Positions 10,851 to 62,127 of a stretch of DNA of 64,000 nt are shown here, in pieces. The notes beneath the pieces are model-generated. The model searched no databases, was not told where the DNA came from, and saw only the letters and a program-made list of their open reading frames with translations. Origin of the DNA: Jimgerdemannia flammicorona (Eukaryota); contig RBNJ01000001.1 of NCBI GenBank assembly GCA_003990765.1, forward strand, positions 1 to 64,000. The letters run 5' to 3'. Within the stretch, counting starts at the first letter, position 1, and every line of letters begins with the position of its first letter. The position numbers were made by a program, and so were the translations under genes.

Positions 10851-11357
10851 TTAGTCATCATTATAATAAGCATAGGCATCTTCTGCATCTATGCCTATTC
10901 CATCATCATCTTCTTCTGTACCTGGGTCACTCCATTCTAGCTCTGGATCTTCTTCTTATTCTTCAGGAAACAGAATGTCTACTTGTTGAAGAATACTCTG
11001 AAAGATGGTCTCATTCATCTGATGAATATTGTTGAGATAGAAGTGAGACTGCACCAGGGCTCCAACATTTTGTTTGTACAAGATGTAGATTTGTTTAGCA
11101 GTTCTTGCTTCTCGGCAGATTATGCCAGCTGCTCCTCCAATATATGGCTGTTCTTGAAGTAGTTGTCTGATATTATAGAAGGCCTATAGATGGTGGATCT
11201 GTAACAATCTTTAGGTGATGGCAAGGTTCTCTTGATACTTCTAGATCAATTGTATTAGGGTTTCTTCAAGTTGGTAGAACTGGGGTAAGAGAATTGGTAG
11301 GGCTTGAAAGGAACTAAGGATGAGGGTTCAAAGGCACTGATCTATCCTTTGGATCAT
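10851..11357 (-). pseudogene. Gypsy B accessory ORF3 (~168 aa, helical, acidic tail; unknown function)
   Basis: ATG overlaps the pol stop (ATGA). One frame with 5 internal stops, each explainable by C>T. Reads ...AFYNIRQLL...RTAKQIYILY...NNIHQMNETIFQSILQQV...EEDDDG...YYNDD*. Confidence 0.7.
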
Positions 11358-13690
11358 AGTTTGTATAGGTATATCTTGAGTCAGTTGATGTGAACTGGAG
11401 TCCTTAAGATACATCTATCCATGCTTCTTAAATAGATGCTGATTTCTCTGATGTTGTGTATAAGATAAGGTCCTTCCCATTTGGGTTCCAGTTTGGTGGC
11501 AAAATTCATTTCAATCATGCTTCTCCAAACTAGTACTTGATCTCCAATCTTGATCTCCTGATCCTTCTGTTTTTGGTTATAATACTTCTTTTGTCTTTCT
11601 TGGGCTTTGATAATCTGACCTCGGGCTTAATTATATAACTATTCTGCCTTCTTGAGAAGGTCTCCAAGATTCTCATGGTCAGTGATTCTGGTTTTCTTAG
11701 CAAACATCATTTTGAATAGCTTTTGTTTAGTGGAGGCAGCAGGGGTGTTCTGAATTTCCATAGGATCTTGGGTAAGCAGAGGTCCCAATTGGTAGGATTG
11801 ACTCAGGCAAGTCCTTTCTTAATGATCTGATTCATTCTCTCTATCATGCCATTGGTCTGAGGGTGGTATGATGTGGTCTACTTGAGGTGGATCTTGTGAA
11901 TTCAGATATAACTTATGATTATGTTATTGATGAATTCTGTACCTCAGTTGGAGATGAGTTCTTCTGGGGGTATATATCTGAGTGTGAGTTCATGGAGAAG
12001 GCCTACAATAGTTAAGGCATCTGCAATTTCTATTGAGAAAGCCTCAGACTACTTGGTCAGATGTTCTACAAGTACAAGAATATATCTGTTTCTTCTTGGT
12101 ATAACTGGTAGAGGTCCAATTACATCTATTCCCCATCTCTGAAAGATATTGTCTGGTGGTACAATTAGTTGCAGTGGTGCTTGATAGTTCTTCCTTCCTT
12201 AGTACTTCTGGCAGATATCATATTTCTTAACTATGTTCTGGACTTATACTCTAAGGTTGAGCCAGTGTTGGTATATTATTCATAGCTTCTCTTCTATATT
12301 CACCTATCCTTGATAGGCTTTCTGATGTTCTTTTCAGATGAGATCTTCTTGTATCTTGATGGTCTGAGGAGTTTTCTTTAGGGTGTAGTTTCTTGAGACA
12401 TCTTTCTTCTGGTTTATGGGGGCTGGCAGGAAAGTACATCAACATTATTGTAAGCTTTCCCTACTTTGTGGATGATGGTGATTTTATAATCCTGAAGGAT
12501 AAGGATCCAGCAGGCTAGAATTCTAGTGGGTTCCTTATAGTTGAATAACTATTTAAGAGCTGCATGGTCTGTAATTAGAGTGAATCTTTTTCCAATAAGG
12601 TAATGCTTGAACAGAGTGACCACCCATATGACTGCAAGAAATTCCAGTTTGGTGCTACTATAGTTCATCTGCTGCTGATTGGTAGCTCTACTTGCATAAG
12701 CTATCACATGGTACTGTTGATCAGGTCCTTTTTAGACTAGAACTACTCCAAGACCATCTTTAGAGGCATCTATATATAAGATGAATGGCTTCTATAGATT
12801 GGGGCATACAAGGATTGATGCTGTAGTCATGTAGTTCTTGAGTTCTTTGAAGGCTTTTTCTTGTAATTCTGTCCATTTAAATGGTACTCCTTTTTTGAGA
12901 AGGATTCAGATTAGGGCAGCAATTTGGGCAAAGTTCTTGATAAACCTTCTATAGTAGGATACTAGCATCAGGAATGATAGTATTTCCTTTGGGGTTTTGG
13001 GTATTGGCCAATTGTTGATCTTCTCAGTTTTCTTTGGGTCTGTATGAGTTCCTTCTTTCAAAACTATAAATTCAAGGAATTCAAGTTTCTGTTTCCTGAA
13101 GTAGCATTTCTTTGCATTCAATCTTAAGTAGTTCTTGTGGATGAGCTTGAAGAATTCCTCTAGGTAGTGCAGGTGTTCTTCAAAATTTGCTAAATAGATG
13201 TTGGAATCATCTATATACACAATTAGACAGTAGTGGATCAAGGGAGCATAGACTGAGTTCATCATCCTCTGAAAGGTAGGGGGTGTATTGCAGAGTCCAA
13301 AGGGCATTTGGAGGTATTCAAACATTTTTCCTAAGGCAAGGAAGGCTGTCTTTTGAATATCTTTGGGGTCCATGGGAATCTCATAAAATCCTGCAAAGAG
13401 ATCTATACTGCTGAAGTATCTGATATCTTATAACTAATCCAAAAGGTCATCAATTCTAGGCAAAGGATAGGTATCCTTTTCAGTGACTGAATTGAGTTTC
13501 CTGTAATCTACACAAAGTCTCCATCCTCCTTTCTTTGGTACAATAAGTATAGGGCTAGCCCAGGGGCTGGTAGAGGGTCGGATAACTCCATTGTCTAAGA
13601 GTTCTTGAATGTACTCCTTTTCAAATGGTTTCAAATGATGGGGTATTCTATAGGGTTTCTGCTGGATGGGTGTTGCATTTCCTATATTTA
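11354..13690 (-). pseudogene. pol: Gypsy B RT - RNase H - integrase
   Basis: [45 protein letters not shown]; integrase GIDVIGPLP and C-terminal KLEPKWEGPY. Confidence 0.92.
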
Positions 13691-14289
13691 TGCTGTGGTG
13701 ATATGATGGATTGTATGGCAGGTTGCTATAATTGATAGTAAAGATATCTTGATATTTGTTGAGAAGTTCTACTAGCTGTTGCTGTTATTGGGGTGTCAAT
13801 TCTTCTCCAATGTTGGTAGAAGGCTTCACTGTCTCCTGGGTTGCAGAGGGGCCTTTCCTTTCTTCTGGGACCTTTTGCCATTTCCCAATAGGTTTAGTTC
13901 ATAAACTTCACTATGAGTTCAGTTGAGAAAAGGCACCAGATGTCCTATGATGATTCCTTTTGACAAGATGATGGTTTCCTAACTTTGGTTAGTTGCTTGG
14001 AAATGTACTGGGTTCATCTTGTCAAGGAATGTGTATCCCTCTATGTCCAGATGAGGAATATCTTCCTTGGGTTCAAAGAAAAGATTTCTGAGATCAGGTG
14101 GTATAAAGATTTCAAAGGTGGTTTGTTCTCCAGACTCCAGGATGAGATTCTTGTGCAGTCTGACTGGTTGCCAGTACACTTACTGGGGAACATTCCTCTT
14201 GAGGTGGTTGACTTGAAGGAGGTATACTTCCTTCCTGTCTGAACTTCCAAATCTCTTGGCTTGTCTTGTTCCTTCAGTTAGTTCAGAGA

Positions 14290-14625
14290 CTTCTTTATGA
14301 AGACTGCTTGGACAATCTTCTGTCCTCTAATGATTCAGTGCCATTCTATACTGCTGTTGTATAAGATAACCTTGATTTTTCCTGTATATCTTGGGTCAAT
14401 AGTTTCTCCTTCCACAGTTATTCCTTGTCTAGCAAGTCTGGACCTTGAGGTCAGTTGGATGTAAGATCCTTGGGGTGGCTGTATGGCTAATCTGATTCTG
14501 ATCATGAAGGTTTTTCTGGGCTTGATAGATTCATCCTCCAGACTATGAAGATCATATCCTATATCCTCTGGGTGAGCTTTAGTTGGAGGTTTGGCCTTGG
14601 GGTGCAGCAGGACATACTGGGCAAT
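14290..14625 (-). pseudogene. dut: Gypsy B dUTPase domain (between protease and RT)
   Basis: PTKAHPEDIGYDL, SRSRLARQGITVEGETIDPRYTGKIKVILYN match trimeric dUTPase motifs 1-3. Confidence 0.92.
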
Positions 14626-15929
14626 ATTCTTGCTGAGTTTAGACTTTCCTAAGGCTGAAGCTCCACTAGTGGAGAGCCTCCAAGCTCTAAGGTTGAGGTG
14701 TGGCCATCTGGCTCCAGTAGAGGGGTCTTGGAGATAGTTGATTCTCTTTCTTCCTGTAGCATCTAGGGCTTTCATGAAATTAGTAGCATCTTCTGCCCAT
14801 CTTTGGTAGGTTGTATGTCTGATGAGAGCTAGGATGTCTTCTTCTAAATCATAGATCTTGAGGATCTTTCTTTCTGGCTTTTTGGTCTGGCTTTTTTGAA
14901 TCTGACTTCAGTTATCTCTTCTCTTTAAAGTGTGAACTGCAACATCATAACTGAGATGGATCTTCTGATGCCTGCAGTCTTAGTAGTCTAGGTGTCTTCC
15001 ATAGTTGCAATATTCCATTGCTTGGAAATGATGTTCCCAGTTGTTGATCTCTTGTTGTTTTGAGAATTGGTACCCATTTTAGTCATAAGTGAGTGGAAGA
15101 GTAGACAAGAGATATATGTCTGTCCGGGTGAAGAAGTCTTATCCCCTGAATCAGCTTTACAACTTAGTGGTAACTTCTTGGAAGGTAGTTGACTGTGCAA
15201 CTGTGTTCAGGGGTTCTGGTCTCTAGGGTCTCTATCTCTCCTATTGGTCTAGTAAATGGCACTGATAGCAGTAGTCTTGGGGAGAGTGGAAGACCATTTG
15301 GTGTGGACATCTTCCTAGTTAAAAAGTCTTTTCTTGGTGAGTTTCTTTCTTGGGAATAATAGTGATTATACTGGGTCCTTCTTCTGTATTCCAAGGGTCA
15401 TTGTCTTCAGGTGGTGTCTAGCAAAGATCATCTTAGGGAATAAGTTTGGAGATCTCTTCTTCTTTAGGTGCTTCCTGTTCAGGAACTTCTTGGTCAGAAG
15501 TTTCTTCTTTCTCAGATAATTCTTGACCCTAGATTGCTTGTACTTCTGCAGCTTCAGTTGTAGGTATCTCTGAAATATATCTGCATTTCTTCTTCTCCTT
15601 TCTGCACTCTGGACAGGCTGTGCCAGGTGATTTCCTTGTTCCCATGATCTTGGAGGAATGCTCAGGACACTTGTATCTCTTGAGGCAAGTAGGGCATCTT
15701 TTGATTTCTCCTACAATAGCTCCAATGGTAATAGAGATGGTGTTCTTAGACCACACATTGTCTTCTGGTCTGTCATCCACCAGGTTAATTTGGAGATTGA
15801 GTCTGAGATCATTTCCATCTTTGGATTCTTCTTCCTCTTTTGTAGTAGACTCCTTGCTGCTGGCATATTCTTCCTGAATAGTCACCTTCTTCTTCTTCTT
15901 TAATTGCTCATAGCTAGTTACCTTAACTC

Positions 15930-17794
15930 TGTACTTCTTGCCTTGGTAGTCAAACTTGAGTACTTGTTGACCAATATTGATAACTGCATTCATTTCCTTC
16001 ATCCAGTTAGTGCCAAGAATTATGTCATAGGTGACAGCTTCTGTGATAACAGCTTTGGAGATGGAGAACTGAATGTGTCTGAGGGAGATAGTGATATTTT
16101 GTACTTCTCCAAGGGGTTGATTTCGGGCTCTATCTGCTACTATAATGCTGAGATTGGATGGTCCATCAATGGGCCATTGAAGGGTATCCAGGAACCATTT
16201 GGCAATGACACAGACAGCTGCTCCTGTATCTATGAGGATCTTTGCCTTTTATCCTCCAATATCTCTATATAGGTAGATACTGATATGTATGTCTTTCAGC
16301 TGCTTGGACAGGAATGGGAGCTGGTTCTTGCTATGGGATTGAGACCCAGCCAGTGCTAGACCTAGTTGTTCTCAACAATTTGTTTCAAACTCCAGCTGGT
16401 GTCAGTTACAGGAACTGCAGGAGAGAGACTTCCATCTTGGCCTCTTGAATCTTCTGCCAGACTTCATTGTAGATATCTCTAGGCATAGTCTTTGGGGTGT
16501 ACTTCTTTTTGGGCTTTGAAGCAGCAGGTTCCCATTATTCTTGTTCCATCTCTTCATTCTTTGGTGGTAGCTTATTTATTTCAGAGACAAAAGGTAAAGA
16601 AGTCTGGGGAGGTGTTTCTACTTATTCCTCCTCATGTTCTTCATCTTCTTCTTAGATGATTCTTCTGCTGATGTTTCTGAATGACCTTCCTACAGGTCTC
16701 TTCCTTTTCTCTGCTGGGTAGACTGTTTTTCGGGTGGTAACCTTGGTAGGATATAAGTCTAGGTCACTGTAATCTTCACTATTACTTACTTTCTCGAAAT
16801 CTTCAATAGGATGGGCTTTAGTTTTCTTATACTGAGTGTCATTCCTTCAGTTTGGTGGTTCTGAGTCCCTTCAGTCACTTCTTTTATTGTCACATTCAGT
16901 GGTATAGTGTCTGAATTATCCACAGTAGAAGTATTGGACTTGGGCTCTGTCTTGGACAGGGTACCTTCTTTCTTCTTGCTGGTAATTCCTGTTATCTCTG
17001 GGTGGATAACCTTGGCTCCTCTATGGTGGGTATCCTCTGTTATCTTAGTAGCTCCAATTTTTGTGTGTGGTGAGTTTTTCAATCTGTCCAACCAATTGGT
17101 CCAACTTGGAGCTAAGGTCTTGAATTTCACTTCTGTCCTTCTTTCCTTCCTTGACTAGCCTTCTTTCTGTGGATCTCTCTTGTCCTTGAAGGAGTCCTTG
17201 TAGGGCTTTAACCAGGATGTCTTCTTTATCTTCCTTCTTATCATGATCACTCCAGGTAGTTCCTTGTCTGATATCAAAGAATCCTTGGACTGCATCTACT
17301 TGCTCCTCAGACCTTCTGATGCCTAGGGTGTAGATATGCTGGACAATGTTTGGGGGAATTCCATTCATGAAAGTCATTGGACCTATGATGTCCTGGTTGG
17401 TGGCATTGAACCCTGCAGCATACATTCTCTTCTGGATTCTTGTAAAGAAAGCTCAGAGTGATTCTCCAAGATTCATCTTCATTCTCATGATGGATTCTTG
17501 AGCCTTGTGGCAGGTTTTGTTTTCTGCATACTTTTCAATGAGCTAGTAGACCATGGCCACATATTCTAGCTCATAAGATACTGCTGTCTATATCTGTCTT
17601 GGCAATTCTGAATCAGGATTGTTTGCTGTTCAATGGAAAATTTCTCTAGCTGGTTCTCTGAGCTGAGTCTTGTAGATGGCAATTTTTCTTTCATCTGAGA
17701 GATTCCTCAGAGCTGCAATTCCTTCAATTCCATCAAGGAATTCTCTGGGGTCTTCCTCTGGGTATCCTGCAAAGGTTGGCAATGAGGTGGCCAT
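15930..17794 (-). pseudogene. gag: Gypsy B gag (with decayed CCHC knuckle) and aspartic protease
   Basis: MATSLPTFAGYPEEDPREFLDGIE; knuckle YFYCG*FRHYTTEC near 16890-16940; protease KILIDTGAAVCVI near 16200-16245. Confidence 0.85.
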
Positions 17795-18352
17795 TTCATC
17801 ATCACTTTCTTCTGATTCTAGTTCTGGTTCAGATTCAGATTCTGATTTACTTTCTGAGCTGTCACTGGAGGTGGGAGTGCTTGGGTATCCTGAGGATGGT
17901 GTTCTGGACCTTGGACAAAGTGGAATGAGCCTTGGTATTCTTGTAGGAGCTACTTCCAACTCTGCAAGAGATTATGGTAAAGGTTCTATTAGTGAGATTG
18001 ATGGGACTGGTATGGAGTATCTGGCTGTAAGGTCTTGGGTTCATATGATAAGATCTTTTAGTTCTTGTGCAAGTTCTTCAAAATCTCTAGCAGGGCTGTC
18101 TGTATTGTCTGGTTGACCTGATTGAGGATTTTGGGCTGTACTGCCTTCTGGTTCTGGTTGGGATCCTTCTGATACTGAGTAGTTGGTAAGTCTTGATGTG
18201 ATTACTTCTCTTCCTGTCTAAATGCTGGAGATAACTGGTTCTCCTATAGTAGCAGAGATTGGTGTTGTGTCAAATATATCCAGTTTGACTGTAGATTCTT
18301 GTGAGCTAAAAAGTTATGTTGATTTTGAAATCTTCTCAGTTGAGCCTCCAAA

Positions 18353-19668
18353 TGTAACATACCTGGCTCAATAGAGATAAATTACAAGGTTGGGGGTTGA
18401 TGTAGTTTGGCTTGAGCTCCCAATTACTTTATTAAAAGCAATAAAATATTCTTAGTGTTTAGTAGTATAATAGTCAAGATCTGGATACTGTGTGAGCAGT
18501 TTCCTTTTTGAGACAGATTCTTGGGTATAGCAGCAGTTTGTGTGAGCAGTTTCCTTCTTGAGTAGTGGTCAATTTGTGTGTAGCATGAGTGGGTTCCTTA
18601 TTTGAGTTAATTAGAAATGCCACAATTTTGTATAGTGAGGCAATCTCCTAAAGTACACGATTTCTGGCATAATGATCTCTTGTGTAGCATGACAATCTCT
18701 GTGTAGCGTGAGTGGATTTCCTTATGTGGGTCAACTGAGAATACAGCAATCTGATAGATAACTCAATTTGGCAGGTGATTTGGATAAATCAGACAAGGTA
18801 GATAATTTGGATAACTCAGATGAGGTAGATAACTTAATAACTTAGATAACTTGAATACAGATAATTCAAATAATTCAAATTCAGGAGGTTCCTGGCTTTG
18901 TCTGGTAAGTATACCAAAATATAGCAGATTCACTAGGAATACTGACAAATATAGCAGGCTCTCTGAGAACAATAACTTGGGTGATGAGCTTTACTGAGAA
19001 TGGTGAATAACTTGAAAATGTCAGATAATGTAGATTTGGTAGGCTTCTGGCTTTATCTGGCAAGTGAACTAAAATATAGTGGCTTATTCCTTAAGCAGCA
19101 GATTACTCAAAAGGTGGTGAAGTTCTTCACATGAACTTAGATAGCAAATCTTCAGGCTTATCTGACAAGTGAACCAAAAACAAACTCTTCTTTATATTGG
19201 AAAGTGGACCAGAGTGGAAGAGAAGAGAACCAAGCTCATAACTTCTTGGCAGTGGCTTGTTGGCAGGCATATCTCCTAAGTATTGCAATTCAATTTCTTT
19301 AGGATCAAGTGGCTTTTGGCAGACATTTCTCCTAAGTGTACTAGACAATTGACTTTTGCTTTGGTTTGTATTCAACTTTTGGACTGAGGTTTATTCACTC
19401 TTGTCTCTGGGATATTTTATATATTATAGTTGCTATCTGGTTGCTATCTGGCTAACTATAGATTTACTATTTATGTATATTTGAGTGGATGACCACCATC
19501 TGGTAATAGCTACTATCTAGGAGACAGCTACTGTTTACATTATTCCCTTCTTTGGCTATCTGGTTATTTATACATTTTTCACAGTAATGGTTGCTAGTTA
19601 CTATGCTATACTAATGTTCATATTATCTGGTTAGGTTTTGAGATTGCTATGTTTTGTGGTTTGTCACA
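18353..19668 (-). repeat. 5' LTR of Gypsy B
   Basis: Direct repeat of 9494-10811, followed on minus by the PBS. Confidence 0.95.
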
Positions 19669-19672
19669 CTAT

Positions 19673-22600
19673 ATAGCAACTTGAAAGATATAAAGCCTGT
19701 TGAGGCTTGTACTGAGTTGTGTAGATAAACTCTACAAAGATAAGATATTGTTTCCAATTATATTATTTATAAAAAATATAGTTTCTTAGCATCTGCTTGA
19801 GAGTTTGGTTTACTCACTTGATTTGTCTATTGGTTTATGGATAGTATATTATACTTAGAGCTTATTGGGCTCTAAGTATCTTGAATAATATCTGCCAGAA
19901 ATAGCTTGTGAATTTTGAATCTCAATCACTAATCATAATCTTTGGAAGACCATAATTTTGAAAGATTGTCTTGAAGAATATTTAGACAGTCTCAGGGATA
20001 GTGACATTGGTCTTAGTTGGCTCCAACTTGATGATATTAGCAAGGCAAACAATAAAGATAATGATGGTATCATTTCCTTAAGATGTTTTGGCAGTTGGAC
20101 AATAAAGTTCATTGTGACTTACTCTTATTTAGTAGCTAGAACTGAGAGAAGCTAGAGTAGACCATATGGCTATAATCTTGATGTCTTGTTCTTTTGGTAG
20201 TAATTATAGATAGATATATATTCCTTGATATTTTGATTCATTACTAGCTAGAAGAAATAATGATAGATGTTGTAGATGGTTTTCTAGTATTCTATATAAT
20301 TAGTAAGAGGAGAGTCATGGTTTTCTTTAAGGATCTTAAAGTGAGATTGTTGGAGTTTGAAATGTATACTTTAGTATTCTTATATATAATTCTATCAGTA
20401 ATCTTATACTCTTCTAGTAAGCTGTAAAGATTTCTTTTGTGATAGGATTCTAGTAATATCCTTCTTTTAGTTTATCTAAAAGAGATTTGTCTGAGATCAC
20501 CTTGATGGTGCTAAGATCAGATCTTTTCAATAAGGTATTAACTACTATATTTGTCTTATCCAGCTTGTAAATAATCTTAGTATTAAAGGCTTGGATATAC
20601 TCAATTCATTTTGTCTGATTTAGAAACAGACAGAGATCTGAGTTGAGATATATGAGTGACTTATAATTAGTAATAATATCAAAGTCTTGGTCTTTGAGAT
20701 AGTATTGCTAATTTTATAGAGTCTTATAAATAGTCAGGAGTTCTTTTTCATAGATAGCATATTTTTATTCAGTCTCATTCAGTTTTCACAAAGAATATAC
20801 AACTAGTTGAGGTCCTTTGCTTACATTTTAAGACAGTACTACATCAATTACATATCCAGATACATCTGTAGTGACTGTGAACTATAGAGCTGGGTCTAGG
20901 TTATATAGAGTTAGTACAGTTATCAGTTTTGTCTTTAGAGTTTGAAATATCTCTTAGCAGGCAGGGGTTCATTGAAATAGATTGCTGATCTTCAACAATT
21001 TGATCATAGACTTTACAATATTGGAGTAACCTTCAATGAATTAGTAGTAATACTCAGATAGTCTCAGAAAAGATCTGATATTATAAATGTTTACTAGAAT
21101 AGGCCAATCTGAGACTGCTTGAACTTTCTTGAGGTTAGACTAAATATTATTGGCTGAGATAATATAGCTAAGGTATTCTATCTCTTTTTTGAAGAATTCA
21201 TATTTACTAAGCTTACAGTAAAGCTTATTTTTCTATAACTTCTCAAATACTTATTAGAGGTACTTAAAGTATTCTCTTTCTGATATACTAAATATTAGAA
21301 TATTATCTAGATAGATTATTATAAAGATATTAAGATATAGTTATAGAATGTCTTATATTAATCTCTAAAATATTAGTGATATATTGGTAAGACTAAAGAG
21401 TATAACTAAAAATTCCCATAGACCATAGCATATCTTGAAGACAGTCTTGAGAATATCTTCTTTCTTGATATAGACTTAATGATAATCAGTACAAAGGTCT
21501 GATTTTGAAAAGATCTTAGTATGTAGAAGTCTGTCTAATATTTTATCTATTCTTAGTAGTAGATACTAGTTGATCTTATTGAGAGCATAGTAGTCAATAT
21601 ACATTTACATAGTACTATTCTTTTTTTTAATAAAAAGAATAAGTATACCATATGGTGATTTGCTTAGTTGAATTTGTCCTTTAGTAGCTAAGTCTTCTAA
21701 TTTTTTTCAAAGAAGTTCTAGTTAGACTATAACATAGGATATAATAACTTATATAGAGGTTTGAAGTCTGGGGAGATTTCAATTTCATAGTCTATACTCC
21801 TTTTGAGTGACAGTCCTATAGGTAGATTATTTGGAACAATGTTTTTGAATTCTTGAACCAGAAGTTGAACTGTCTTTGAGAGATCCTTTCTTATTTCTAA
21901 TTTTGAAAGTTATATAATAGCTAAGAATGCTTGCTTATGCTTTTTAAAAAGCTTCTTGAATTGGATTACAGATATGGTTTCTACTAATGCTTTTGTAGAC
22001 TTCTTTACTTCTAGTATGATCTTCTTTCCTTCTTGATTTAGTATGAGCTTGTTTTCTCTCCAATCAATATCAGATTATATAGTATTAACCAGGGTTTTTT
22101 CAGAATAATATAGTATTCTTACAGGAGTATAATGTAAAGATTTAATTTTTTAAAGTATTCTTATATTGTATAGAGTAACTTGACTGCCATTCTGCTAACT
22201 TGATATTTCTTTCTATCAGCTGTTGAAATCTTAAACTCCACTTATTATAGTAGCTTAATAGTGATAATCTTTAGCTTCTTTACTATCTTTTTACTGATGA
22301 CATTATTAGATATACTACTATCAATAAGGACATCTATTTCTTATCCTTTGACTTTTCTTTTAAATAGTAGTAGACTGATATTAATAACACTGATATTCTT
22401 CTTATGGCTTATACTTCTAGTACTTCTAAATCCTTCAGTACTCTGAGTAGTTTCTTCTAAGTTTGTAACTTTCTTGATCATTAGTACTTTGGCTTATTCT
22501 AGAATTAGTGTACAACCTGGTCTTACTTCTTGATTTTAAAGAGTTGTGTACTATTGTTGATCAGAAGTACTTTGATTTTTTTACAATAGTCTGAGTCTAT

Positions 22601-22681: not shown

Positions 22682-22685
22682 CTAT

Positions 22686-23141: not shown

Positions 23142-23240
23142 ACTTGGTGCCCATTGGCTAGTGATTCAAGACGAATCCCTCACTTTCAAGCTGAACAACG
23201 AACAACTGCAACAAGAACCCACACAACACAATCAGATAAA

Positions 23241-50079: not shown

Positions 50080-50829
50080 ATTTGTGTGTTTAAAAGTTGT
50101 AGTTGTTGTTTGTTTTGGTTCTCTGATTCGACGCATCTCAGTACTCAGTATATATATATTTGGTCCTAATTGGTAAGATTCTATTTGTGTGAATCTTGTA
50201 TTCTGTGACTTTATATTGACTCAGCTTTGTATACTGTAACTTCAGTTTGACTCAGCTTTGTGATCGAGCAGGTGATTTCCAGATTTGTTCAGAGGTCGCA
50301 TGTGATTTCAGTGACTTGTTCAGAGGGTGACATGTAATTTCGGTGGCTTAGAGGTTGTGTGCTTACAACTCTCCCCTTCTTAGCTTTCGACATCCTTGTT
50401 GGGGTATTCTAATTTTGTTCTAGTGTTGTTATACTGTTTGGGAGGTTAAAAGTCCAGTAAAGTCCATTTTTTCAGAAAGTGGCATGCTTATAGTACAGTT
50501 GTCTAATGTGTTGGATTCATATGTTAAAGAGTCATGTGTTCAATACCATGTACTGGAAGTGATTCTGACATCATTCACTGCTGGAGAATTTCCTCTACAA
50601 AATCTTCTTAAATATCTATGCCTCGTTTCTCACCAGTGGTATGGGGAGAATAGGCTGGCTTTCAGTTTTGCTACTTTTTGCAGAGGGTCAGTATTCTTGT
50701 CTTATTTCACTGAGTTCTTGATTTTTGATAATTATAGTGTTCGTAAGGATAATATATAGTATATATGGATAGGTGTGGAGTATTTGGTTTTAGTTGTTCA
50801 AGGAATCATATTTCTGAACTAGGTTGGTA

Positions 50830-53800
50830 GCATTCTGGAGGTTGGTCTTGGGTTCCTAGGTTACATCATGAATTGGATAACTTTTCCATTTAATAAGGTA
50901 CTCAGGGTGGTTCTTGTGATTACATTTGTTGAGGATTTGTTCAACTTCATACTCTTCTTGGCCATTAATAATGACAGGTGCAGGTGGTTTTATAGTTCAG
51001 TTAGGGAATAGTTTATCATCATTCTCATTATATTGCTTGAGATGTTGGATATTAAAGACTGGGTGAATCTTAATGGTGTCTGGTAGTGCCAATTTGTAGG
51101 AGGTTGGGGAAACTTATGCAATAACTTCAAATGGTCCAATGAACTTGCTGTTCAGCTTTGTGGATGGTCTGTGCTTGAGGTTGTCAACTCGGTATCCTCT
51201 GATGTCCAGTAGAACTTTTTCTCCAATATCAAAGATTTCTTCTCAGTGGTGTTGGTTAACATACTGTGACTGTTGTTCTTGAGCTCGTGATAAATTCTCA
51301 ATGACAATCTGGCTTAGATTGTACATTCAGAGTAAGAATTCTTCAACAGCTTTGACTGTAGAGGGTTCTTCAGTGGTTCAGATAAGTGTCAAAGGGGTGT
51401 TTGGGTTTTGTCCAATATTGGCAAAGAATGGGGTCATTCCGAGAGAGGCTTGCTTGCTATTATTATAGGCAAACTCGACTGTGGTCAGGTGTTCATACCA
51501 ATCATCTTATCTGTAGGAAACATAGTTCCTTAGCATTTATTCTAGAGTTCGGTTCATTCTTTCGGTTTGACCATCAGTTTCTGGGTGAAAGACTGTGGAT
51601 AGTACAAGTTTTGTTCCAAGGTATACATAGAGGGCTTTCCAAAAATGGCTGATGAATTTCAGGTCTTGGTCACTAACAATGATCTTAGGAAGACCATGAT
51701 AGCAAAAGATATTGTCAAATAAGAGTGTGGCTATGTCTAGTACTGTTGCAGTAGTAGTAGTAGGCACAAAGTGGGCTTGTTTGCTGAGGTAATCCACAAA
51801 GACAACAATTGCATCTTTCCTATTCTTGGTTTGGGGTAGTTGTATAATGAAGTCCATAGAGATTTGTTCCCAATTCGCAGATAGTACTGGGATAGGGTGA
51901 AGTATGCCAGGTTTTGCTGTATTGAGGACTTGTTTCATTGGCAGGCATCACAGGAAGTGATATAGGTTTTGAGCTTATCTGCCATGTGGGGCCAATAGAA
52001 GTTTCGGAAGATAACTTTATAACATTTATTGAATCCTAAATGTCCAGCTATAGGGGCATTATGACATTTGAATAGGATAGTCCTTCGGAGGTCTTGGTTG
52101 TTTGGGACATACAGTCTGTCTTTGTAGTAGATAGTGTTATCCTTCAGTTGATATTGGTGATACTGTATATGCTTGTCAGTATCATCACTGTTCAGGATTT
52201 CTCGAAGTGCTTGAGCTTCCTTATCATCAGCACATGCTATGATAATTTGTTCCATGATGGAGTTTGTAACCAAGGTGAGAGTTTGGATAACTTCTTCGAT
52301 TGGTAGTCTGGAGATTGCATTGGCAATAATATTTTCCTTGCCAGAGTGGTACTGGATTTCATAGTCAAAATTGTTGAGGACTTTCATCCATCTGGCTTGC
52401 TTTTGAGAAAGGGTAGCCTGTGTCTTGATATTGACTAATGATTTGTGGTCAGTCAATATGGTAAAGTGTACTTCTTCTAGGTATGGTCGCTATTTGATCA
52501 GGGTGTCTACGATGGCTAACATTTCCTTTTCATGAGTTGCATAGTTGATTTCGGCATCATTGAACTTGCAGGAGTGATAGGCCACAGGGTGTCCTTCTTG
52601 CATAAGTACTGCTCCAAGGGCTAGATCAGAGGCATCAGTAGTGACTTCATATGATAGGGCAGGATTTGCTGCTTGAAGTACTGGAGTGGTTATCAAGGCA
52701 TCCTTTAGTGCTTGAAAGGCAGTATCTTGCTTGAGTCTCCAATTTACAAGATTGTTGAAGTCTTTCTCTTGTTTTGTGGTCCAGGGTTGTTCTTGTTTCT
52801 TGCTGTGCTTGGTCATTTGGGTGAGGACAGTAGTGATTTTAGCAAAGTTGGCAACAAATTACCTGTAATAGTTTGCTAATCCCAGAAATGACTGCAGGTC
52901 TTTCAGTTTCTTGGGTCTGGGCCAATCTTTGATTGCAGAGATTTTGCTGGAGTCTACTTTGATTCCATTTGGAGTGACAATATGTCCAAGAAATTAAATT
53001 TCTTTCAGGAGAAATTCGCACTTGCTGAGTTTTGCAAAGAGTCGGTTTTCTCGAAGTTTCAGTAGTACTAGTTCAAGGTATTTGAGATGTTCCTCTAGGG
53101 TTTTGCTGAAGACTAGGATGTTGTCAATGTAGACAACAATGAATTTGTCCAGGTATGGGTGCAGGATAGTATTCATCAGAGTCTGGAAGGTTGCAGGAGC
53201 ATTAGTTAAGCCAAAGGGCATAACTAGGAACTTGAAGTGTCTATCGAGTTTGGAAGACTGTCTTGTAGATGTCTTCTTCTTTTATGGCAATTTGCCAGTA
53301 ACTATTTCACAGGTCAAAGGAGCTTATGAATTGCAGGTTGGTAAGTCTATTGAATATTTTATCGATTCTAGGTAGTGGGCAATAGTTCTTGATGGTCTGT
53401 TCATTGAGATCATGGTAGTTAATACACATTTGCAGGTCTCCTCCTTTCTTGACAACAAATAGGACTGGTGCACCATAAGGTGATACACTGGGTCTGATGA
53501 ATCTTTGTTCTAGGAGTTCATCAATTTCTTTCTTGAGTGCATTGATTTCTCTTGGAGACATGTGGTAGATTGACTTGAAGGCTGGTTTGGTATCTGGGAT
53601 GGTCTTGATAGTATGGTCTACTGCTTGTTTAGGAGGTAGGCCTTTTGGGAGTTTCTTTGGGAATATGTCTTGAAATTTCTGGAGTAGTGGTCTAACATGG
53701 CTGTCAACTTTGGAAAAATCCTCTTCAGAGTTCTCAGGTTCTCCTTTGGATAGATGGATGGAGATGGTGAAGAGAGGGCATTTCTTGGCCAATTTCTTAA

Positions 53801-54240
53801 GTTGTAGCTTGTTGATGTGGGTGATCTTTGGTCCAGGGTCACTAGAATTAAGTGGGTCCTTTTCATCTTGTAGTTTGAAGTTGTGGCATCCTTTTTTGAT
53901 GGTCAGAGAATGGTTTACCCAATTGATCATGGGGTTCTCTTATTTTAACCATGGAGTCTCCAGGATGATTTCATTATCAGGAAGTGGTATGATTTGGAGG
54001 GTGACATATTCTCAGTAGTTGCCAATTCGGAAAGGTAGATTGCAGACTTCTTTGCTAATAATATGTGAGGTTTCATCAGCTATAGTAACTGCTTGAGTTT
54101 GCTGTACTGGAGAGATGAAGACCTTGAGTCTGTTGGCTGTCTCTTCATTGATAAAGTTGTCTGAGGCACCACTGTCTATCATAATCTTGACAGGTGCTTG
54201 ATTGATAAAAGCCTTAAGTATGAGCAGTTTGTCTGATCCA
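50830..54240 (-). pseudogene. pol: Gypsy E protease - RT - RNase H - integrase - chromodomain
   Basis: [70 protein letters not shown]; chromodomain EYEVEQIL..YLIKWKSYP..T*EP. Confidence 0.95.
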
Positions 54241-54449
54241 ATGGTGGTGATTTCTATTATAGGAGCTTTCCTTCTATTGGTTCTTCTTTGTGCCAGTTCA
54301 TTGACACAAGAGAAGCAATCATCAATCATTTAGGAAGAGTACATTCTAATACTATGAGGGCATCGGCCACTTGGTATATATCCATCTTCGATCTTCTTGT
54401 AGAATTGTTCTTTTTTGTTCATGGTAGGTTGGATTGGGGCCTTGTTTGA

Positions 54450-54860
54450 TGAGCCAAATCCTTTAGATCCTTGGATGTTAGATAGTAGTTCAGGGACTTC
54501 CTTGACTATCAGGGTTGACTCAATTTTTTCGAATAGAATCTGGGCAATGCAGAAATCTATAGAGATCTTGAAGGGTGTCCAACTGTGGTTTCAAATGAGG
54601 ACAATGATTTTGCCTGTATAATCTTCGTTGATAACTCCTCCTTCTACTGAGAGTCCTTTCAATGCTAGACTGCTGCAACAGCATATTCTTCTAACATGTC
54701 CTTCAGAGATTTGGATACTGATTCCTGTGTAAACTTGTTTGACTTCTTGGTTGGAAACTGTAGCTTCTTCAACTGCATACAGGTCATATCTAGCTGCTTT
54801 TTGACTTCCTTTGGTTGGGGCCTTAGCAGTTTGTCTTAACTTGATAAAGTCTAGTGTTCT
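54450..54860 (-). pseudogene. dut: Gypsy E dUTPase (upstream of protease)
   Basis: Manual translation APTKGSQKAARYDLY, SSLALKGLSVEGGVINEDYTGKI, IAQIL, GSKGFGSS. Confidence 0.92.
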
Positions 54861-54899
54861 GGTGATCAGGTTGTTGAGGTGGTGTAGAGTGGTAATAGT

Positions 54900-55918
54900 T
54901 GCTCATATTGCTGTTCAGGGTTTTTGGTTAGGGCAGGCACTGGCCATGTATCCTGTCTTTTGGCAATAGAAGTATGCTCCACTTCTTCAAAGTTCATTCC
55001 TTTCGCCTTCAGTGAGTTTTTTGAAGGTGCTTGGCTGGGTGGTTCATGATTTCTAGGTGTCCAAGAGGTGGATGTGGAGGGAGCTCGGGATGCTTCATGC
55101 TTAGGTTCTTCTTTCTTGGTCCAAGTCTTTTCTTTGTTGTTGAATTGTCTTCGGGGCAGAATTGGTCCAGCTGTTAGGATTCACTTGACCATAGTCTTGA
55201 TTCTTACCAGGCACCATTGTTGGTGATCACAACCAACTGGGCAGCCTTGTTCTTGGATTTTTCTAGTAAGCCATTCAGGCAGGGCATCAAATAAATAGTC
55301 TACTCTTGTACCATTTCATGCTTCATCATTGGCAATATATCTTAGACCAACAGTGTTCAGGAGTGACTCGAGTTTTGTACAGAAGGTTTCGAATTCTTCT
55401 TTGCTATGTATATCAAATTTGAGGTTGTGGAGTTTTACTCGAGATTCAGCAATCATGGTTTCACTGCGGTATTGAGCAATCATGAGTTGTTTGAGTCCAG
55501 GGGCTGCAGGATGGACTCCGTATCCTGGGGTATTGTTTGCTGCATTCTGAGCAACTACTGCAGGTCAGGTATCCCATGTAAGGGGTTTTTCAGGAAGAGT
55601 TTGTCACCATTCTTCAGCAGGTCCTTGGAAGAATGTAACAACTCAGTGGACATAGGCTATAGTGGTAGCAAAGAGTTGTTTCAGAGTGTGGTCTTGATTG
55701 TTTGTCAGAATGCAGTCAGCAACTTGCTCATTAGTCCATTGATTGGCTTCGAAGTTGGTGTCAACTATACTAATGAAGCTTTGGACTTCTTGTGCAGTAC
55801 CATTGAAGGTAGGTAGGCTCAGATTTTTGATAGGTCGGGTCTGTTCTGCTAAGGCAGTAATGGTTGCTGCCATTATGGCTACCTGGGCTATAAGGTCTAG
55901 AATCTGTTGGTTTGCCAT
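54900..55918 (-). pseudogene. gag: Gypsy E gag with decayed CCHC knuckle
   Basis: LSLPTFNGTAQEVQSFI; YFYCQKTGYMASAC near 54930-54975. Confidence 0.8.
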
Positions 55919-57560
55919 GTTGTTTACTGAAGGCAGTTGGACTGCTGATACATAGTAGTGTTACTGGTACTACTTGAGGTACTGGTGCAGAGTGTGATGG
56001 GGTTCTTTGGGTCTGTATAAGTTACTGGAGTAGTAGTTGTAGATCTGGAGTAAGGGCTTGATAGATAGCTGTTTGTTGCTGTGTAGGTGTATTCTGTCCT
56101 AATGGAGGTACTTCTCCTTCGGTGGTATATCTGGGATCGAATTCACTGAGATACTCCTCCTCCTCTTCAGTTTGGTCCCTGTGTAATTGGATTTGCTCGG
56201 CATCGAAGTAGATGAAATCAGTTGTATATCTGATTTCAGATGGACTTAATTCAAAGTTAAGTTCAGGTTCAGTATTGGTTTCAGATTCAGATAGTGCTAT
56301 AGCAGGGCCTACTTCAGGTTCGAGGTCAGGTAGTTGATGAAGAGTTTCTCTTACTTCTTCTTTAAGGATATGGTGGGCCTTGCTGTTTTGGAATTGGTAG
56401 TATAATGTGGTCTTGGTCCTGGTGCAGTGAAAGTCGGTAGAGTTGAGCCACTTGGCTATAGAGGCTTGGGCTTCATGAGGAACTAAGGCTAGAAAGACTG
56501 CTGCTGGTTGTCCTAGGTTACTCAGGTTTGTGGAGCTGATAAAACTCTTGTTGAGAAGAGTAAAGAAGGCTTCAATAAGACTTTCTTTGTCTTGACTTAC
56601 TGGGTGTAGTGCAAGGAGTTCAGTGAATAGGGTTTTATCTATTTGCTGGTTTAACTGGAATACTTCTTTCTTTGAATAAAGTTTGTCCCACTTGTTGCAG
56701 GTGTGGAGGTCAAATTGTCCTTGTATGTCAGATTCAATTCTCTCCAGATTGTCAGATGGTTCAAGATAAATTCCAGTTTAGAGGTTGGGCTCTATACCAA
56801 TTTATAGGAATTCTCAGAAGGGTTTGTAGCAGGGTGAGGAAGTATCTTGAAGCGGAATTGGATTGTAAACCACTACTACCAAGTGTAAGAGAGTTGCTTT
56901 TTAGAGTAACTGTTATGTAGTTCTGGAAGGGTTTTCTGAAAGTTCTGGATATTCTGGAAGACCGTTTTCTTATGGTCAAGATCAATTTCATATGGAGTAC
57001 ATCCTCTATGCTTATTGATTTCAAGTTCGGGTTAATGTCTCAACTAAAGTCCTTTTTCAGACTAGTTCTGGATGTTCAGGATTTTCCATATTTCAGGAAG
57101 TTCAAGAAACTAAGACCAGCTTAGTTGAATTGGTGTATCACTGCAGACAATATCCAATTAGGAAATTTCATGACGGGGTTAGGAGTGGGATCTAACAGGG
57201 AGCAGATTTACTTAAGAGTGTTTTGGGGGTTATTAAATAGGTTTATTCGCTATTTATGATATTGCTATACTAGGAGTAGTTGTGTGAAGGGATATTGTGG
57301 GAAAGTGTTCAGAAATGTTCTTGTATGTTTTTTGTCTGAGATTCTGAGATCTGGGGGAGGGGGTATTTATACTAGTGAGGGGCTATCTGGACTATGCTAG
57401 ATATGGATGTAGCACTAAGTGCCTTGCTGAGTCAGAATGCAATCACATAGTACAAGTGTGATCTGATATATCAAGAGATCATCTGACTGCTGAGTCAGTT
57501 TACAGTCATATCATACAAGGCTAATCTAACTATACTATGTCTGCTAGGCTATTTATAGGT

Positions 57561-58022
57561 TTAGGCACTGTCTGGGTAGTCTTCGATGACATCACTATCG
57601 ATTGCATTATCTCTGATGAAGTAGTCATCTAGGAAGAGTGGTTCATGGATTACTTCTCCTTGTTCGCTGAGGTAATAATACATTGGAACTTCATCACCAT
57701 CCCACAGAATAGCATTGTCTGTCTCATATGCTGGATAAGGTATTGGTGGGCGAAGGAGGGGTACATTATCTTCACTTTCATCAGATTCACTATCTGCATA
57801 CCTTCTGTAGATTACAGCACTATGAGTCATGGGGTTGTAGTAAGCTGGTGGCTGTGGTTCATGTCGCTCATACTTAGGTAGTGGAGTAGTTGGTTCAATC
57901 TCGAGAGTTGTCTGGAGATATAGATTGTGTTCTCCGGTCTCTTCATTGTAGTTGAAGTAATTGGGAGTGAATGTGGGTTGGTATTCATACCAGTGGTCAT
58001 TGTCCCAATAAGTCTCATACAT
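57561..58022 (-). CDS. E LTR ORF-B: intact 153-aa Tyr/Asp/Glu/Pro-rich protein of unknown function
   Basis: Open ATG-TAA frame in element sense, starting 12 nt after the ORF-A stop. Confidence 0.55.
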   Translation of the reverse strand: MYETYWDNDHWYEYQPTFTPNYFNYNEETGEHNLYLQTTLEIEPTTPLPKYERHEPQPPAYYNPMTHSAVIYRRYADSESDESEDNVPLLRPPIPYPAYETDNAILWDGDEVPMYYYLSEQGEVIHEPLFLDDYFIRDNAIDSDVIEDYPDSA

Positions 58023-58034
58023 GGTTATGAATTG

Positions 58035-58658
58035 TTATAAGTTCATCAGCAAGGTTGGTGGTATAATTAGTGTTGGCAGAGATCCTTGGCTTGGGGTCAT
58101 ATTGGTGTCAGAGGGATCATTGTCTTCTGCTTCATCTTCATCAAACTAGATTATATTGTAAACATCCTTTATAGTGTATCTGACTTGGAGTATTTGCAGG
58201 ATGTGGTCATCGAGGTACAGGAAGGTTCTGTCTGTAGTTTCAATGTACTCGAGATACTTGTAGTTGATTTCTTGTATCATATCATCGATTTGGCCATAGA
58301 ATAGGGTAGCAACCATTTTGCTGGTAGTAACTCAGAGTCGAGAAATAAAGGTGCTATACTTGTAGAAGAGTTCTCAGTGTTTGTGGGCAATGAGCTTCTG
58401 GTGTTGAGACATCTGGGTAATGTCTGTATCATGGTGGTATTCGATCATATCTTCCAGGAGGCAGCTGATCTGGTAGTAGCTTGAGATTTGTCCGATTTGG
58501 TGGGCCTTGCTAAGCATGTTCAGAGCATTCCATCAGACTTCCATGAAGTAGAGGGGTGCTAGGCTATGGATATTCATGAGGGGCAGAGGGGGTGTGGCTT
58601 AGTTGATAATGGCATTCCAAATGTCAGCACAGATACAGGTATAGATCTCGGTGGTCAT
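58035..58658 (-). pseudogene. E LTR ORF-A (ORF3 family, ~207 aa), 5' LTR copy
   Basis: Single frame; two TGA stops correspond to CAA in the other LTR copy, implying ancestral CGA (Arg). Confidence 0.75.
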
Positions 58659-58950
58659 GTTTGTATGTTTGGAAGTTGTAGTTGTTGTTTGTTTTGGTTC
58701 TCTGATTCAATGCATCTCGGTGCTCAGTATATATACATTTGGTCCTGATTGGTAAGATTCCATTTGTGTGAATCTTGTGTTCTGTGACTTTGTATTGACT
58801 CAGCTTTGTGCACTGTGACTTCAGTTTATCTCAGCTTCATGATTGAGCAGGTGATTTCCAGATTTGTTCAGAGCTCACATGTGATTTCAGTGGCTTGTTC
58901 AGAGGGTGACATGTAATTTCAGTGGCTTAGAGGTTGTGTGCTTACAAATA

Positions 58951-60620
58951 GCACCACTTCCTCCTAGGACAACTATTTGTGGCCTATACTGATCACCATG
59001 CTCTGTAGTATATTCACACATACAGCTCATGCTGATCCACAGACAAGTCTGCTGGATGGAAATCATTACTAACTTTGATATGGAAATCAAGTATATCTCA
59101 GGCAAAACCAACCATGTGGCTGATGGTTTCTCCAGATACATGGAAGATGAACTTGTCTTTATAATCAAGATAATTGAAGACCTTACTCAGATGATCAAGG
59201 ATAGCTATCAGCAAGACAGCCCCCTGATGAAATTTCTTCAATTCTGCTAAGACCCAGAGGCCAAGGTCCCAGAACTTATGAGACAAATATCCAAGAGATT
59301 CACTTACTATGATGGACTTATCTACAGGGACCATGACAGAGTAGTTATATCTAACAATAATACTCTGTGGCTCAAGATCATGTAGGAACTCTATGATACT
59401 CCTACAGCAGAACACTTTGGTTTTGAGAAGACATATAATCTCCTCTCAAGAGAGTTCTACTGGCCAAAGATAACCAAGGATATCAAAGCCTTTGTAGTCT
59501 TATGCAAGATATACCAAAGGTTTAAGAGTGATAACAAGATACTAGCAGGACTCCTGCAACCCTTGCCTATTCTGAGTCACAACTGGGATCAGATTGTAAT
59601 GAATTTTATTGTTCAGCTCTCTAAGACCAAGGTAGGATGGGATGCTATTGTGGTATTTGTAGACTACCTAAGCAAAAAAGCTCATTTTGCACTCACTAAG
59701 ACCACTGCTACAGCACCAGAGATTGTCAAGATTTTCCTCAACCAAGTATTCAGGCTATAAGGTATGCCTAGTACTATTGTATCTAACTAAGATGCTAAGT
59801 TTATAAGTAACTTCTGGAAGGCATTCTTCTCTCTCCATAGAACCAAGCTGAAGTTCTCTACTGCCTACTACCCCCAGACTGACAGTCAGACTAAGTAAAT
59901 CAACAGAACTCTCAAACAGATGCTTAGCATCTTCTGCTGTTACAAGCAGAATGATTGGAACAAGTACCTAGCTCATACTGAGTGTGCCTACAACAACAGC
60001 CAGCAAACCTCTATGAAGAAGGCTCCATTCTTCCTGAACCATGGTCAACACCCAAGGACTCTGAGTACTACTGCAAAATCAGCAGTCCCAGAAGCCCAAG
60101 ATCTGGCTGAGACTATTTCTGATCTTACCCAAATGACAAGAGATGCTCTTATAGAAGTACAAGACTATTAGACCAAGTATGTGAACTTGAAGCAAAGAGA
60201 AGTAACATGGCCATACTTAGAACAGACCACTCCACCTAGATATCCTGATATAACAACCAGTCAAGAAACTCTGTGCTAAAAGAATTGGACCATATAAGAT
60301 TGTGGAAAAGGTCAGTGAAGTCAACTACAAGTTGCAACTTCTCTACAATATCTAAGTATATCTAGTATTCCATATCAGTCAATTGGTGGACTACCATGAG
60401 AACCTATTCCCTGAGCATACAGTTCTACCTCTACCCCCAATTAGGATCAATGATCATGAGGAATTTGAAATTAGAGAAGTACTTGACTATAAGATCCACA
60501 AATATCCCAAAACAGTCAAGTGGGTTTTCCTCATCAAGTGGAAGGGTTACCCCACCCATGATGCTATCTGAAAAAAGGAAGAAACTCTGGAGAATATATG
60601 TGAAGCCCTTCAGAACTATA
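58951..60620 (+). pseudogene. pol: Gypsy D RNase H end - integrase - chromodomain
   Basis: YTDH, GKTNHVADGFSR, WDQIVMNFI, VFVDYLSK, STAYYPQTD; EEFEIREVLD..FLIKWKGYPTHDAI*. Confidence 0.92.
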
Positions 60621-61299
60621 TGGAAACACTCACTTCCCAGCAAAGGAAGAAACTGCAGCTCTAAAGAATCAGAGCACCTAGCAAACAAGATACTACATAT
60701 TTTACCCAAGATATATAATACCAAACATTGCAGAAAAAGAAACACTATATAATCAATAAGAAGATACCTGAGCAAAGGACAATCTAGCATAGTACAGCAA
60801 AATATATTTAAACAACTCCATTTTATGTCATCTATATCATCTCCACTGGATGATGATGGATACTTCATATGGAACTTAGGAAAGCCAACATTGTTGAAAC
60901 TAATCTAAGTCTATCCACATGATAAATATTGTTACTAGGAATTGCCTCAGATTACAAGAAATACTATTTCTGAGAGGTTTGAACCCCCCAGCTGTAACAA
61001 TGAGAGCCCTCACCCTAGACAAGGATGGCCAGTCCTCACAAATATACCAACCAGATAAAAAAAAAAGAGGACCAAGATCTGTCAACTCTGTGTAACCACA
61101 ACTACAAGGAGCAATATCTTTGAAATCAGGTTTTTCTCATATGACCAGCACATGCCTGCTTACAGCAACACATCACATATTTTGCTAGAAAGCATGACCA
61201 AAAAGTCACACCAGATAGGTGAATAAGTATAAATACCCAAGACAAGAATGCTCTGCAACTCTTATTCCTCTCTCCTCACAAAGAAAAGATAAGACAAGA

Positions 61300-62127
61300 A
61301 TGCCTGCTACCTGCTACCAAACTGCCTGCCATAGCCAGCCCCTCCCAAGCCAGGTTGACTGCCTCTTTGGATACATCCAGATTGCTATCCAAGGAAGGAA
61401 CTGCTGCTCAGAGGCCCTTAACCTCTCCAGCCCGGACCTAGGATAGTATGTTCTTGACTGCTGTAAACTTATTGAAAGGGCCTATCTTGCTACCAGCCAC
61501 CTAGAGATCTAGTATGAATACAAAATTGGCCACCAGCTTCTTCAACATACAAATGGCCTACCCACTGACCAGGTCTCAGACTGGACCCACCTGGACAGGT
61601 ATAAGCAAAGACTTGTCAAGAAGGTCCATCAAATTATATGCTATGTATCCTTTACAATCTCCAACTTCAACTATATCCAACTGAAGGATTTCCAGAACCT
61701 CTCTTTCTCCAAGGTTGATGAGCTAGAGATTAAGGTAGCTTAAGAAGTCAACTTCTGGATCACCCTCAAGTTCACTGACTGTGAACTCCACTGGAGCTCT
61801 CTTCTGAATGATAATCCAGACCAATGACTCCAAGGCCTCTCTGATCTCTTTGAAAGACCACCTATTCAAATAGATATCCCCAGACATAAGGATCAAGAAC
61901 CCTACTTGAATGGTCCCAACTATATCAGATGGAAAACCCCTATACCAGCACTTATCTCAATATAAGAACCATTTGCAGACCTCAATGACTTTTCCATCCT
62001 GGACAGCAAGCCATTAGTAATCACCCCCCCTACCACTGAAGAGGATGGCAACAACACTGAGAAAGACTCTCTACCTTTCTCTCCCCTGGTTCTCAATTTC
62101 CGAATCAATGAGGATATTGATTTCTAA
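61300..62127 (+). pseudogene. Gypsy D accessory ORF3 (~275 aa, unknown function)
   Basis: Single frame ending at the PPT with 5 internal stops explainable by C>T; YEYKIGHQLL...RLVKKVHQII...ISNFNYIQLKDFQNLSFSKVDEL; GTATAAATACCC at 61227. Confidence 0.7.

Follow-up and report, generated by a model that had tools for sequence, protein, structure and literature searches.

Does an accessory protein gene lie hidden behind pol in the decayed retrotransposons at the beginning of a contig of the Jimgerdemannia flammicorona genome (RBNJ01000001.1, assembly GCA_003990765.1), and what might its product do for these elements? The window, by which we mean the whole stretch of 64,000 nucleotides (nt) that was analysed (positions 1 to 64,000), is a nest of decayed Ty3/Gypsy long terminal repeat (LTR) retrotransposons, as determined by self-comparison and domain mapping, and its elements are designated A to E. 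A first-pass annotation made from the letters alone had proposed that, once stop codons are read through, elements B, C, D and E carry an extra open reading frame (ORF) in addition to gag and pol, termed ORF3 here. All of these read-through frames, including both copies in E, are present:

10851..11357, minus strand: ORF3 of B; 168 codons and a stop codon, 5 internal stops
28396..28857, plus strand: ORF3 of C; 153 codons and a stop codon, 2 internal TGA
61300..62127, plus strand: candidate ORF3 of D; 275 codons and a stop codon, 5 internal stops
58035..58658, minus strand: ORF3 of E, copy in the 5' LTR; 207 codons and a stop codon, 5 internal stops
49454..50079, minus strand: ORF3 of E, copy in the 3' LTR; more stops than the 5' copy, and a frameshift near codon 127 at which the frame is lost

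The best overall explanation, to which we assign a probability of about 0.6, is that ORF3 is a maintained and separate accessory gene, that the genes of B, C and E form one family which probably includes D, and that the product would act in trans.

ORF3 in elements B, C and E is a maintained gene

The proposed frame has the lowest stop count among the six frames in B (5 in 168 codons), C (2 in 153) and D (5 in 275), and in the 5' copy of E (5 in 207) it shares the lowest count with one reverse frame. Less decayed relatives of the encoded proteins were found among database gene calls, and they carry R, Q or W at the positions of the window stops. Eight of 24 candidates are relatives of the C protein (E-values from 3e-74 to 9e-32); one of them, P0006, is intact, has a length identical to that of C ORF3 (153 amino acids) and shares 81% identity with it. 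An exhaustive search with the B protein gave six matches, of which five are true (P0015 to P0019). P0015 is open across 144 amino acids (51% identity), and one of the B relatives is a fragment retaining the acidic tail. The sixth match, P0020 (1089 amino acids), is an Ig-repeat protein that matches only in a short L/P/Q-rich stretch and was rejected as spurious. For E, one of seven candidates is a relative (P0014); it has the same start and is open over its 128 amino acids (80% identity). No relative of C ORF3 was found among viral contigs.

Selection was analysed for C by comparison with an element of the same family on a metagenome contig (L001), in which the frame for gag, protease (PR), dUTPase, reverse transcriptase (RT) and RNase H (RH) is open for 1258 codons and ORF3 is intact (153 codons). 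In the frame of ORF3 itself, the proportion of changed sites is 0.200 for replacement sites (pN) and 0.808 for synonymous sites (pS), whereas the two other frames of ORF3 show no such contrast (pN/pS of 0.32/0.34 and 0.36/0.20). The ratio of 0.24 in ORF3 is close to those of gag-PR (0.19) and integrase (IN, 0.17). Because pN is low relative to pS in the ORF3 frame only, ORF3 of C is a protein-coding gene under purifying selection, and the ratio below one that the first-pass annotation had named as a check was thus obtained for this family. Together, the intact relatives and the frame-specific selection bear out its claim that the extra ORF is a genuine non-env protein gene: in B, C and E, ORF3 is a real accessory gene of approximately 145 to 210 codons that is selectively maintained.

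Change at replacement sites is three to four times higher in ORF3 than in pol (pN 0.17–0.20 versus 0.04–0.08). The nucleotide identity between the window copy of C and L001 is 85–90% across gag-pol and approximately 70% in ORF3, with the break at the start of ORF3. This drop suggests either that lineages have exchanged the 3' module or that ORF3 has changed faster. In the same alignment (window 28380–28947, L001 5780–6350), ORF3 is the only part with saturated synonymous sites.

The position of ORF3 in the elements follows a common plan. The order of stop codon, purine tract and LTR is identical in B, C, D and L001, and the gap between the ORF3 stop and the 3' LTR (36 nt in B, 36 nt in C, 11 nt in D) holds the purine tract alone. 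In B and C, ORF3 starts inside the final pol codons in a frame other than that of pol, at −1 in B and +1 in C. In B, the start codon of ORF3 and the stop codon of pol are joined as ATGA; pol and ORF3 overlap by 11 nt in the window copy of C and by 44 nt in L001. The candidate ORF3 of D lies about 575 nt beyond pol. An A at position −3 precedes the ORF3 ATG in all four families, and in C and L001 the context is ACCATGG. This separate start codon and the differing frame relation to pol point to a separate product, with a transcript that is subgenomic or initiated internally, rather than a Pol fusion.

Elements C (28379–28381) and B (11378–11380, minus strand) have an in-frame TGA at one and the same codon position in the C-terminus of integrase, in both cases as AAC TGA CTC AAG. 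L001 has CGA here; this CpG site has decayed in each of the two families independently.

A different arrangement was found in E, where ORF3 is located wholly within the LTR (LTR from 58947 to 56884, ORF from 58658 to 58035) and likewise in the 3' LTR, so that each end of the element has a copy. Its start is 290 nt inside the LTR, downstream of the primer tract. The plus-strand priming site may have shifted upstream of ORF3, which would have brought the gene into U3 and caused it to be copied to both LTRs; the arrangement represents a natural experiment on the entry of a gene into an LTR. Both LTRs of E retain a TATA-like sequence, TATATATA, about 70 nt 5' of the ORF3 ATG (58735–58742 and 50148–50155, minus strand), and this conservation implies that the LTR may drive ORF3 directly. 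Should TATATATA function as a promoter, transcripts that start in the LTR would have ORF3 as their first ORF, and it could be expressed from solo LTRs as well.

Relationship of the ORF3 genes to one another

The first-pass annotation had aligned the proteins of all four families on a common core by eye. For B, C and E, the alignment was recovered with the less decayed relatives: BLASTP gave E-values of 5e-5 (B–C), 5e-4 (B–E) and 1e-3 (C–E), and the three alignments are mutually consistent and in the register chosen by eye (Y60 of B, Y66 of C and Y61 of E). It was not recovered from the window copies alone, and for D it is suggestive. The conserved core, Y-x-[IL]-G ... A-x-[KR]-[IVL]-[HY]-x-L-[FY], is in register in B, C and E.

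To compare families, the hidden Markov model (HMM) of one family was scored on proteins of another and the number of 5000 shuffles reaching the real score was counted; P0017, which departs from its family after residue 69, was excluded from the HMMs. The score of the C model was reached by no shuffle for the B protein P0015 and by 18 for P0018, and that of the B model by none for either of two C proteins. Between C and E, the counts were 2 (C model) and 1 (E model); between B and E they were 5 in both directions. A six-frame scan of the window was conducted with an HMM built from 9 of the 14 database sequences and from no window sequence, and its strong matches were the four copies of B, C and E only. 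Judged by these alignments, the genes of B, C and E are very probably homologues belonging to one family.

The case for D is less clear. The real score of D against the joint HMM was reached by 3 of 2000 shuffles and that of its core alone by 2 of 2000. In hhalign, residues 69–134 of D were aligned to residues 62–126 of C in the combined alignment (E = 0.025, probability 2%). The alignment register and the place before the primer tract are the same as in the other families. Among the differences listed between the window and contigs of four public sequencing runs (see below), one concerns the first stop of D (61444), whose T is a C in nearly all contigs.

A number of results weigh against one maintained family, and against the inclusion of D in particular. 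In the 3' copy of E, the proposed frame is no better than other frames, and the database relatives, being gene calls, are selected for being open. When the window copies were compared pairwise by BLASTP, six of six comparisons were not significant (E-values from 0.09 to 21). The profile-profile comparison proposed in the first-pass annotation gave a divided answer, since the low E-values of hhalign (0.017 for B–C, 0.0039 for B–E) are accompanied by probabilities of 2.7% and 8.5%, with shallow profiles (effective number of sequences 1.5–2.6). The C profile against single window copies gave no significant match (E-values of 0.19 for B, 0.15 for D and 0.21 for E), and the B profile against D gave an E-value of 0.6. 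With the single-family HMMs, 89, 402 and 109 of 5000 shuffles scored at least as high as D, and in the six-frame scan D was found among the noise at −4.4 bits. No relative of D was identified among 195 word-sharing candidates of one length class, and none of 40 pattern matches in a metagenome scan was confirmed. In addition, the frame of D was picked by eye, which inflates its statistics.

On balance, we consider D to be probably a fourth, more diverged member of the ORF3 family, a placement suggested by the alignments; that its frame alone is due to chance is somewhat less likely, though a serious prospect. The proposed occurrence of ORF3 in elements with and without a chromodomain is accordingly borne out by E on one side and B and C on the other, while D counts as a probable member.

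Known counterparts and possible roles of the ORF3 product

The ORF3 proteins are hydrophilic (grand average of hydropathy, GRAVY, −0.36 to −0.68), and the isoelectric point (pI) is 5.2–6.8 in four of the five proteins of at least 128 amino acids, the fifth being a gene call extended upstream. In eight sequences, the highest 19-residue Kyte–Doolittle mean is 0.19–1.41, which is under the usual 1.6; none of the eight contains a transmembrane helix, in agreement with the predicted soluble protein. No env family in Pfam was matched, so that ORF3 does not fall into the env-like class. The acidic tails proposed for B, D and E were also found: the last 40 residues of B contain 18 D+E and no K+R, together with five aromatic residues (W/F/Y), and acidic patches occur in D and E. 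The tail of C is short, with 6 D+E versus 4 K+R in the last 40 residues, a point against the activator role considered below. AlphaFold2 (AF2) predicted helices only, at aligned positions in B and C, with a mean predicted local distance difference test (pLDDT) score of 49.4 and 56.9. Both runs used one alignment and confidence is low, so the agreement of the helices counts for little; the proposed helical protein is supported by these models as far as secondary structure is concerned, and a common fold of the families is not demonstrated by them.

At E ≤ 5, Pfam contained no family for six of the seven proteins, and D gave a single chance-level row (E = 0.18). The best match among PDB sequences had an E-value of 0.64, Foldseek with the low-confidence model returned no match at E ≤ 0.001 and generic helical rows only, and the Atlas gave no usable lead for ORF3. 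A characterised retrotransposon domain, which according to the first-pass annotation would have removed the novelty, was thus absent from the Pfam and PDB searches. As no description was found in a literature search either, its designation as an undescribed protein apparently stands.

Among LTR retrotransposons, additional ORFs (aORFs) form a recognised kind that has been reviewed for plants (PMC7264820, in the parts available). ORF3 is in sense orientation, outside gag-pol, within the element and conserved among copies, as are aORFs, and it resembles them in its place in between pol and the 3' LTR and in its conservation within families. As differences, ORF3 is here shown to be under selection, is common to families that are 37–38% alike in RT-RH, and lies inside the LTR in E. 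We regard ORF3 as a new family within a known kind. In fungal Gypsy elements, a figure legend marks an "add. ORF ... with unknown function", and dUTPase is placed at several positions in pol (PMC2864245, as far as available). With that ORF compared by its legend, the ORF3 family is apparently undescribed.

The available part of a study of LTR retrotransposons in bdelloid rotifers describes retrovirus-like lineages that have a dUTPase and varied non-env ORF3s, the modules being common to diverse elements (PMC5408684). The combination of dUTPase and a non-env ORF3 is the same as here. However, the rotifer ORF3s named in that part are GDSL esterases, DEDDy exonucleases or transmembrane proteins, whereas the present ORF3 matches no family. 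By description only, there is also a likeness to CERV, a novel accessory protein of Cer1 (Metaviridae, Caenorhabditis elegans), which is separate from Gag-Pol and needed in trans; in the sections at hand, CERV is reported to be made from a spliced mRNA and to act in RNA export (PMC10309623).

As regards its position and its tail, ORF3 can be compared with genes of retroviruses. Retroviral accessory genes are located in or overlap LTRs or 3' ends, examples being sag in U3 of mouse mammary tumour virus (MMTV), nef of human immunodeficiency virus (HIV) and tas of foamy viruses with its internal promoter, and such genes distinguish "complex" retroviruses from simple retroelements. ORF3 of E, with a TATA-like box upstream, is likewise wholly in the LTR at both ends, as is sag of MMTV, and the acidic tail is reminiscent of activation domains; the hosts and the families of elements are not the same. 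To our knowledge, few non-env accessory genes of Metaviridae are known and almost none has an assigned role. ORF3 has long been kept, by chromoviruses as well as by other Gypsy elements, across families that are 37–38% identical in RT-RH (B or C versus E), and evidently it is needed by the elements. It offers a concrete protein for the study of candidate transcriptional, RNA-handling or anti-silencing functions. Annotation pipelines that mask such elements miss it because most copies are riddled with stops made by transitions.

Our leading guess, which is tentative and built on analogy, is that the ORF3 product is a trans-acting activator or adaptor. In this small, soluble and predicted helical protein, the conserved core would bind a partner, and the acidic, aromatic C-terminal tail would act in trans to raise the expression of the element itself. 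Transactivators of complex retroviruses boost the expression of their own element in this manner.

A role in RNA handling, that is, in the export, stabilisation or packaging of unspliced genomic RNA as known for CERV or lentiviral Rev, is rather unlikely. ORF3 would suit it as a small, non-env, element-encoded protein apart from Gag-Pol that is predicted to be helical, and CERV demonstrates that Metaviridae can need such a factor, as far as the available part of that study goes (PMC10309623). The proteins, however, have no basic, arginine-rich patch, their net charge is acidic with the pI values given above, and Pfam revealed no RNA-binding domain.

To about the same low degree, ORF3 might be a counter-defence factor directed against host silencing or a cytosine-deamination and uracil pathway, in partnership with the dUTPase. 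The distribution of the two genes is one argument. B, C, E and L001 contain both, as does D with its candidate ORF3, and the dUTPase is located between PR and RT in B, C, D and E. Element A has no dUTPase match in the domain mapping and lacks ORF3 because its chromodomain reaches to about 105 nt from the LTR and leaves no space, so that the absence of both from A was correctly stated in the first-pass annotation. Identity in RT-RH is 0.45 between B and C, 0.43 between A and D, 0.41 between A and E, 0.49 between D and E, and 0.29–0.38 between the two groups so formed, B with C and A with D and E. The RT of A is thus closer to D and E than those of B and C are (0.37–0.38), yet A lacks both genes, a distribution that fits a joint loss in A or a joint transfer. 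Further support might be seen in the C>T and G>A changes with which the copies are riddled, and in the replacement change of ORF3, which resembles that of arms-race genes. Against this, the link between ORF3 and dUTPase rests on six elements. The earlier statement that ORF3 travels with dUTPase agrees with the four window elements and L001, which have both, and with A, which has neither, but it amounts to at most one independent contrast. Moreover, pN/pS is well below 1, no similarity to any known suppressor was detected in Pfam or among PDB sequences, and faster change may mean weak constraint or module exchange.

A narrower form of this idea, less likely still, is a two-part kit in which the dUTPase would exclude uracil from the cDNA and ORF3 would neutralise a deaminating or silencing host factor, by analogy with Vif, Vpr or VANC. 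If so, every LTR of E, solo LTRs included, would be a standing ORF3 expression unit behind its own TATA box.

It is improbable that ORF3 supplies Pol or integrase, through frameshift or read-through, with an alternative C-terminus that would be involved in target choice where a chromodomain is lacking. The start of ORF3 within the final pol codons of B and C, in which no chromodomain was matched, would agree with this. The opposite frame shifts in these two elements and the ATG with A at −3 that is kept in all families do not, and D and E carry a chromodomain and ORF3 alike, with the gene of E past the primer tract, in the LTR itself, and that of D some distance after pol. That the frames are open by chance in decayed non-coding DNA and that their likeness is an artefact of alignment by eye can be dismissed for B, C and E: although the window copies alone gave no significant comparison and D reaches firm significance in no test, chance is excluded for C by frame-specific selection, for B and E by diverged relatives that stay open, and for the likeness of B, C and E by the shuffle tests.

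The surrounding nest of retrotransposons

The elements of the nest have the following structure, with LTR similarities given as observed between the two LTRs of one element:

8312..63741, minus strand: element A, chromovirus; LTRs 8312–8793 and 63326–63741; RT 20549–21679; SH3 and chromodomain 8794–9493
9494..19668, minus strand: element B, Gypsy with PR-dUTPase-RT; LTRs 9494–10811 and 18353–19668 (1318 bp, 85.8% alike)
22685..29350, plus strand: element C, Gypsy with gag(CCHC)-PR-dUTPase-RT-RH-IN; LTRs 22685–23141 and 28894–29350 (457 bp, 94.3% alike)
30062..62902, plus strand: element D, chromovirus; dUTPase 38824–39024; LTRs 30062–30818 and 62139–62902 (approximately 760 bp, 88.4% alike)
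48304..58947, minus strand: element E, chromovirus with dUTPase; LTRs 48304–50368 and 56884–58947 (2065 bp, 91.8% alike)

Element A is the oldest and the host of all others in the nest. In the domain mapping, neither B nor C gave a chromodomain match. Element D is split by nested insertions, and its chromodomain ends near 60626. Element E is inserted in D and has TG..CA ends, a TATT target duplication, a primer-binding site and a polypurine tract.

Decay in the window is dominated by transitions, at CpG and CpA alike, and the copies are rich in C>T and G>A changes. Classical repeat-induced point mutation was rejected as the origin of the stops, as its indices do not fit ((CA+TG)/(AC+GT) = 0.98–1.76). 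Four public runs, three of them from soil metagenomes and the fourth from a coded organism, contain thousands of contigs that match the region of E and D (48304–62902) at 80–99% identity. These contigs are DNA and show the presence of related copies, and no RNA run was listed as matching the stretch; 40 of 3268 differences from the window were listed. Where they differ from E or D, the contigs usually have G against an A and C against a T of the window, which indicates that decay is further advanced in the window copies.

Within the RT region of D, a 9-nt tandem array (46469–47553, unit GCAAGATGG, approximately 123 copies, 70% matches) separates two halves of the RT match. The stretches 603–6455 and 31013–36882 form an inverted pair that is 79.9% alike over 5.9 kb and represents a further retroelement, which is rich in G+C and has a very strong GC skew. 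One copy is located within D, and an RVT_1 match was found at 34996–35547; comparison with the Gypsy pol of C revealed no similarity.

One further stretch resembles ORF3:

8034..8183, plus strand: weak sixth ORF3-like stretch outside the LTR of A; very decayed, 27% GC, with core matches YYKI.. and ..TKRLYILF

No pol domain was found nearby, and as a sixth ORF3 copy the stretch is a lead only. It scored 3.2 bits in the six-frame scan and 12.0 bits alone, a value reached by none of 2000 shuffles.

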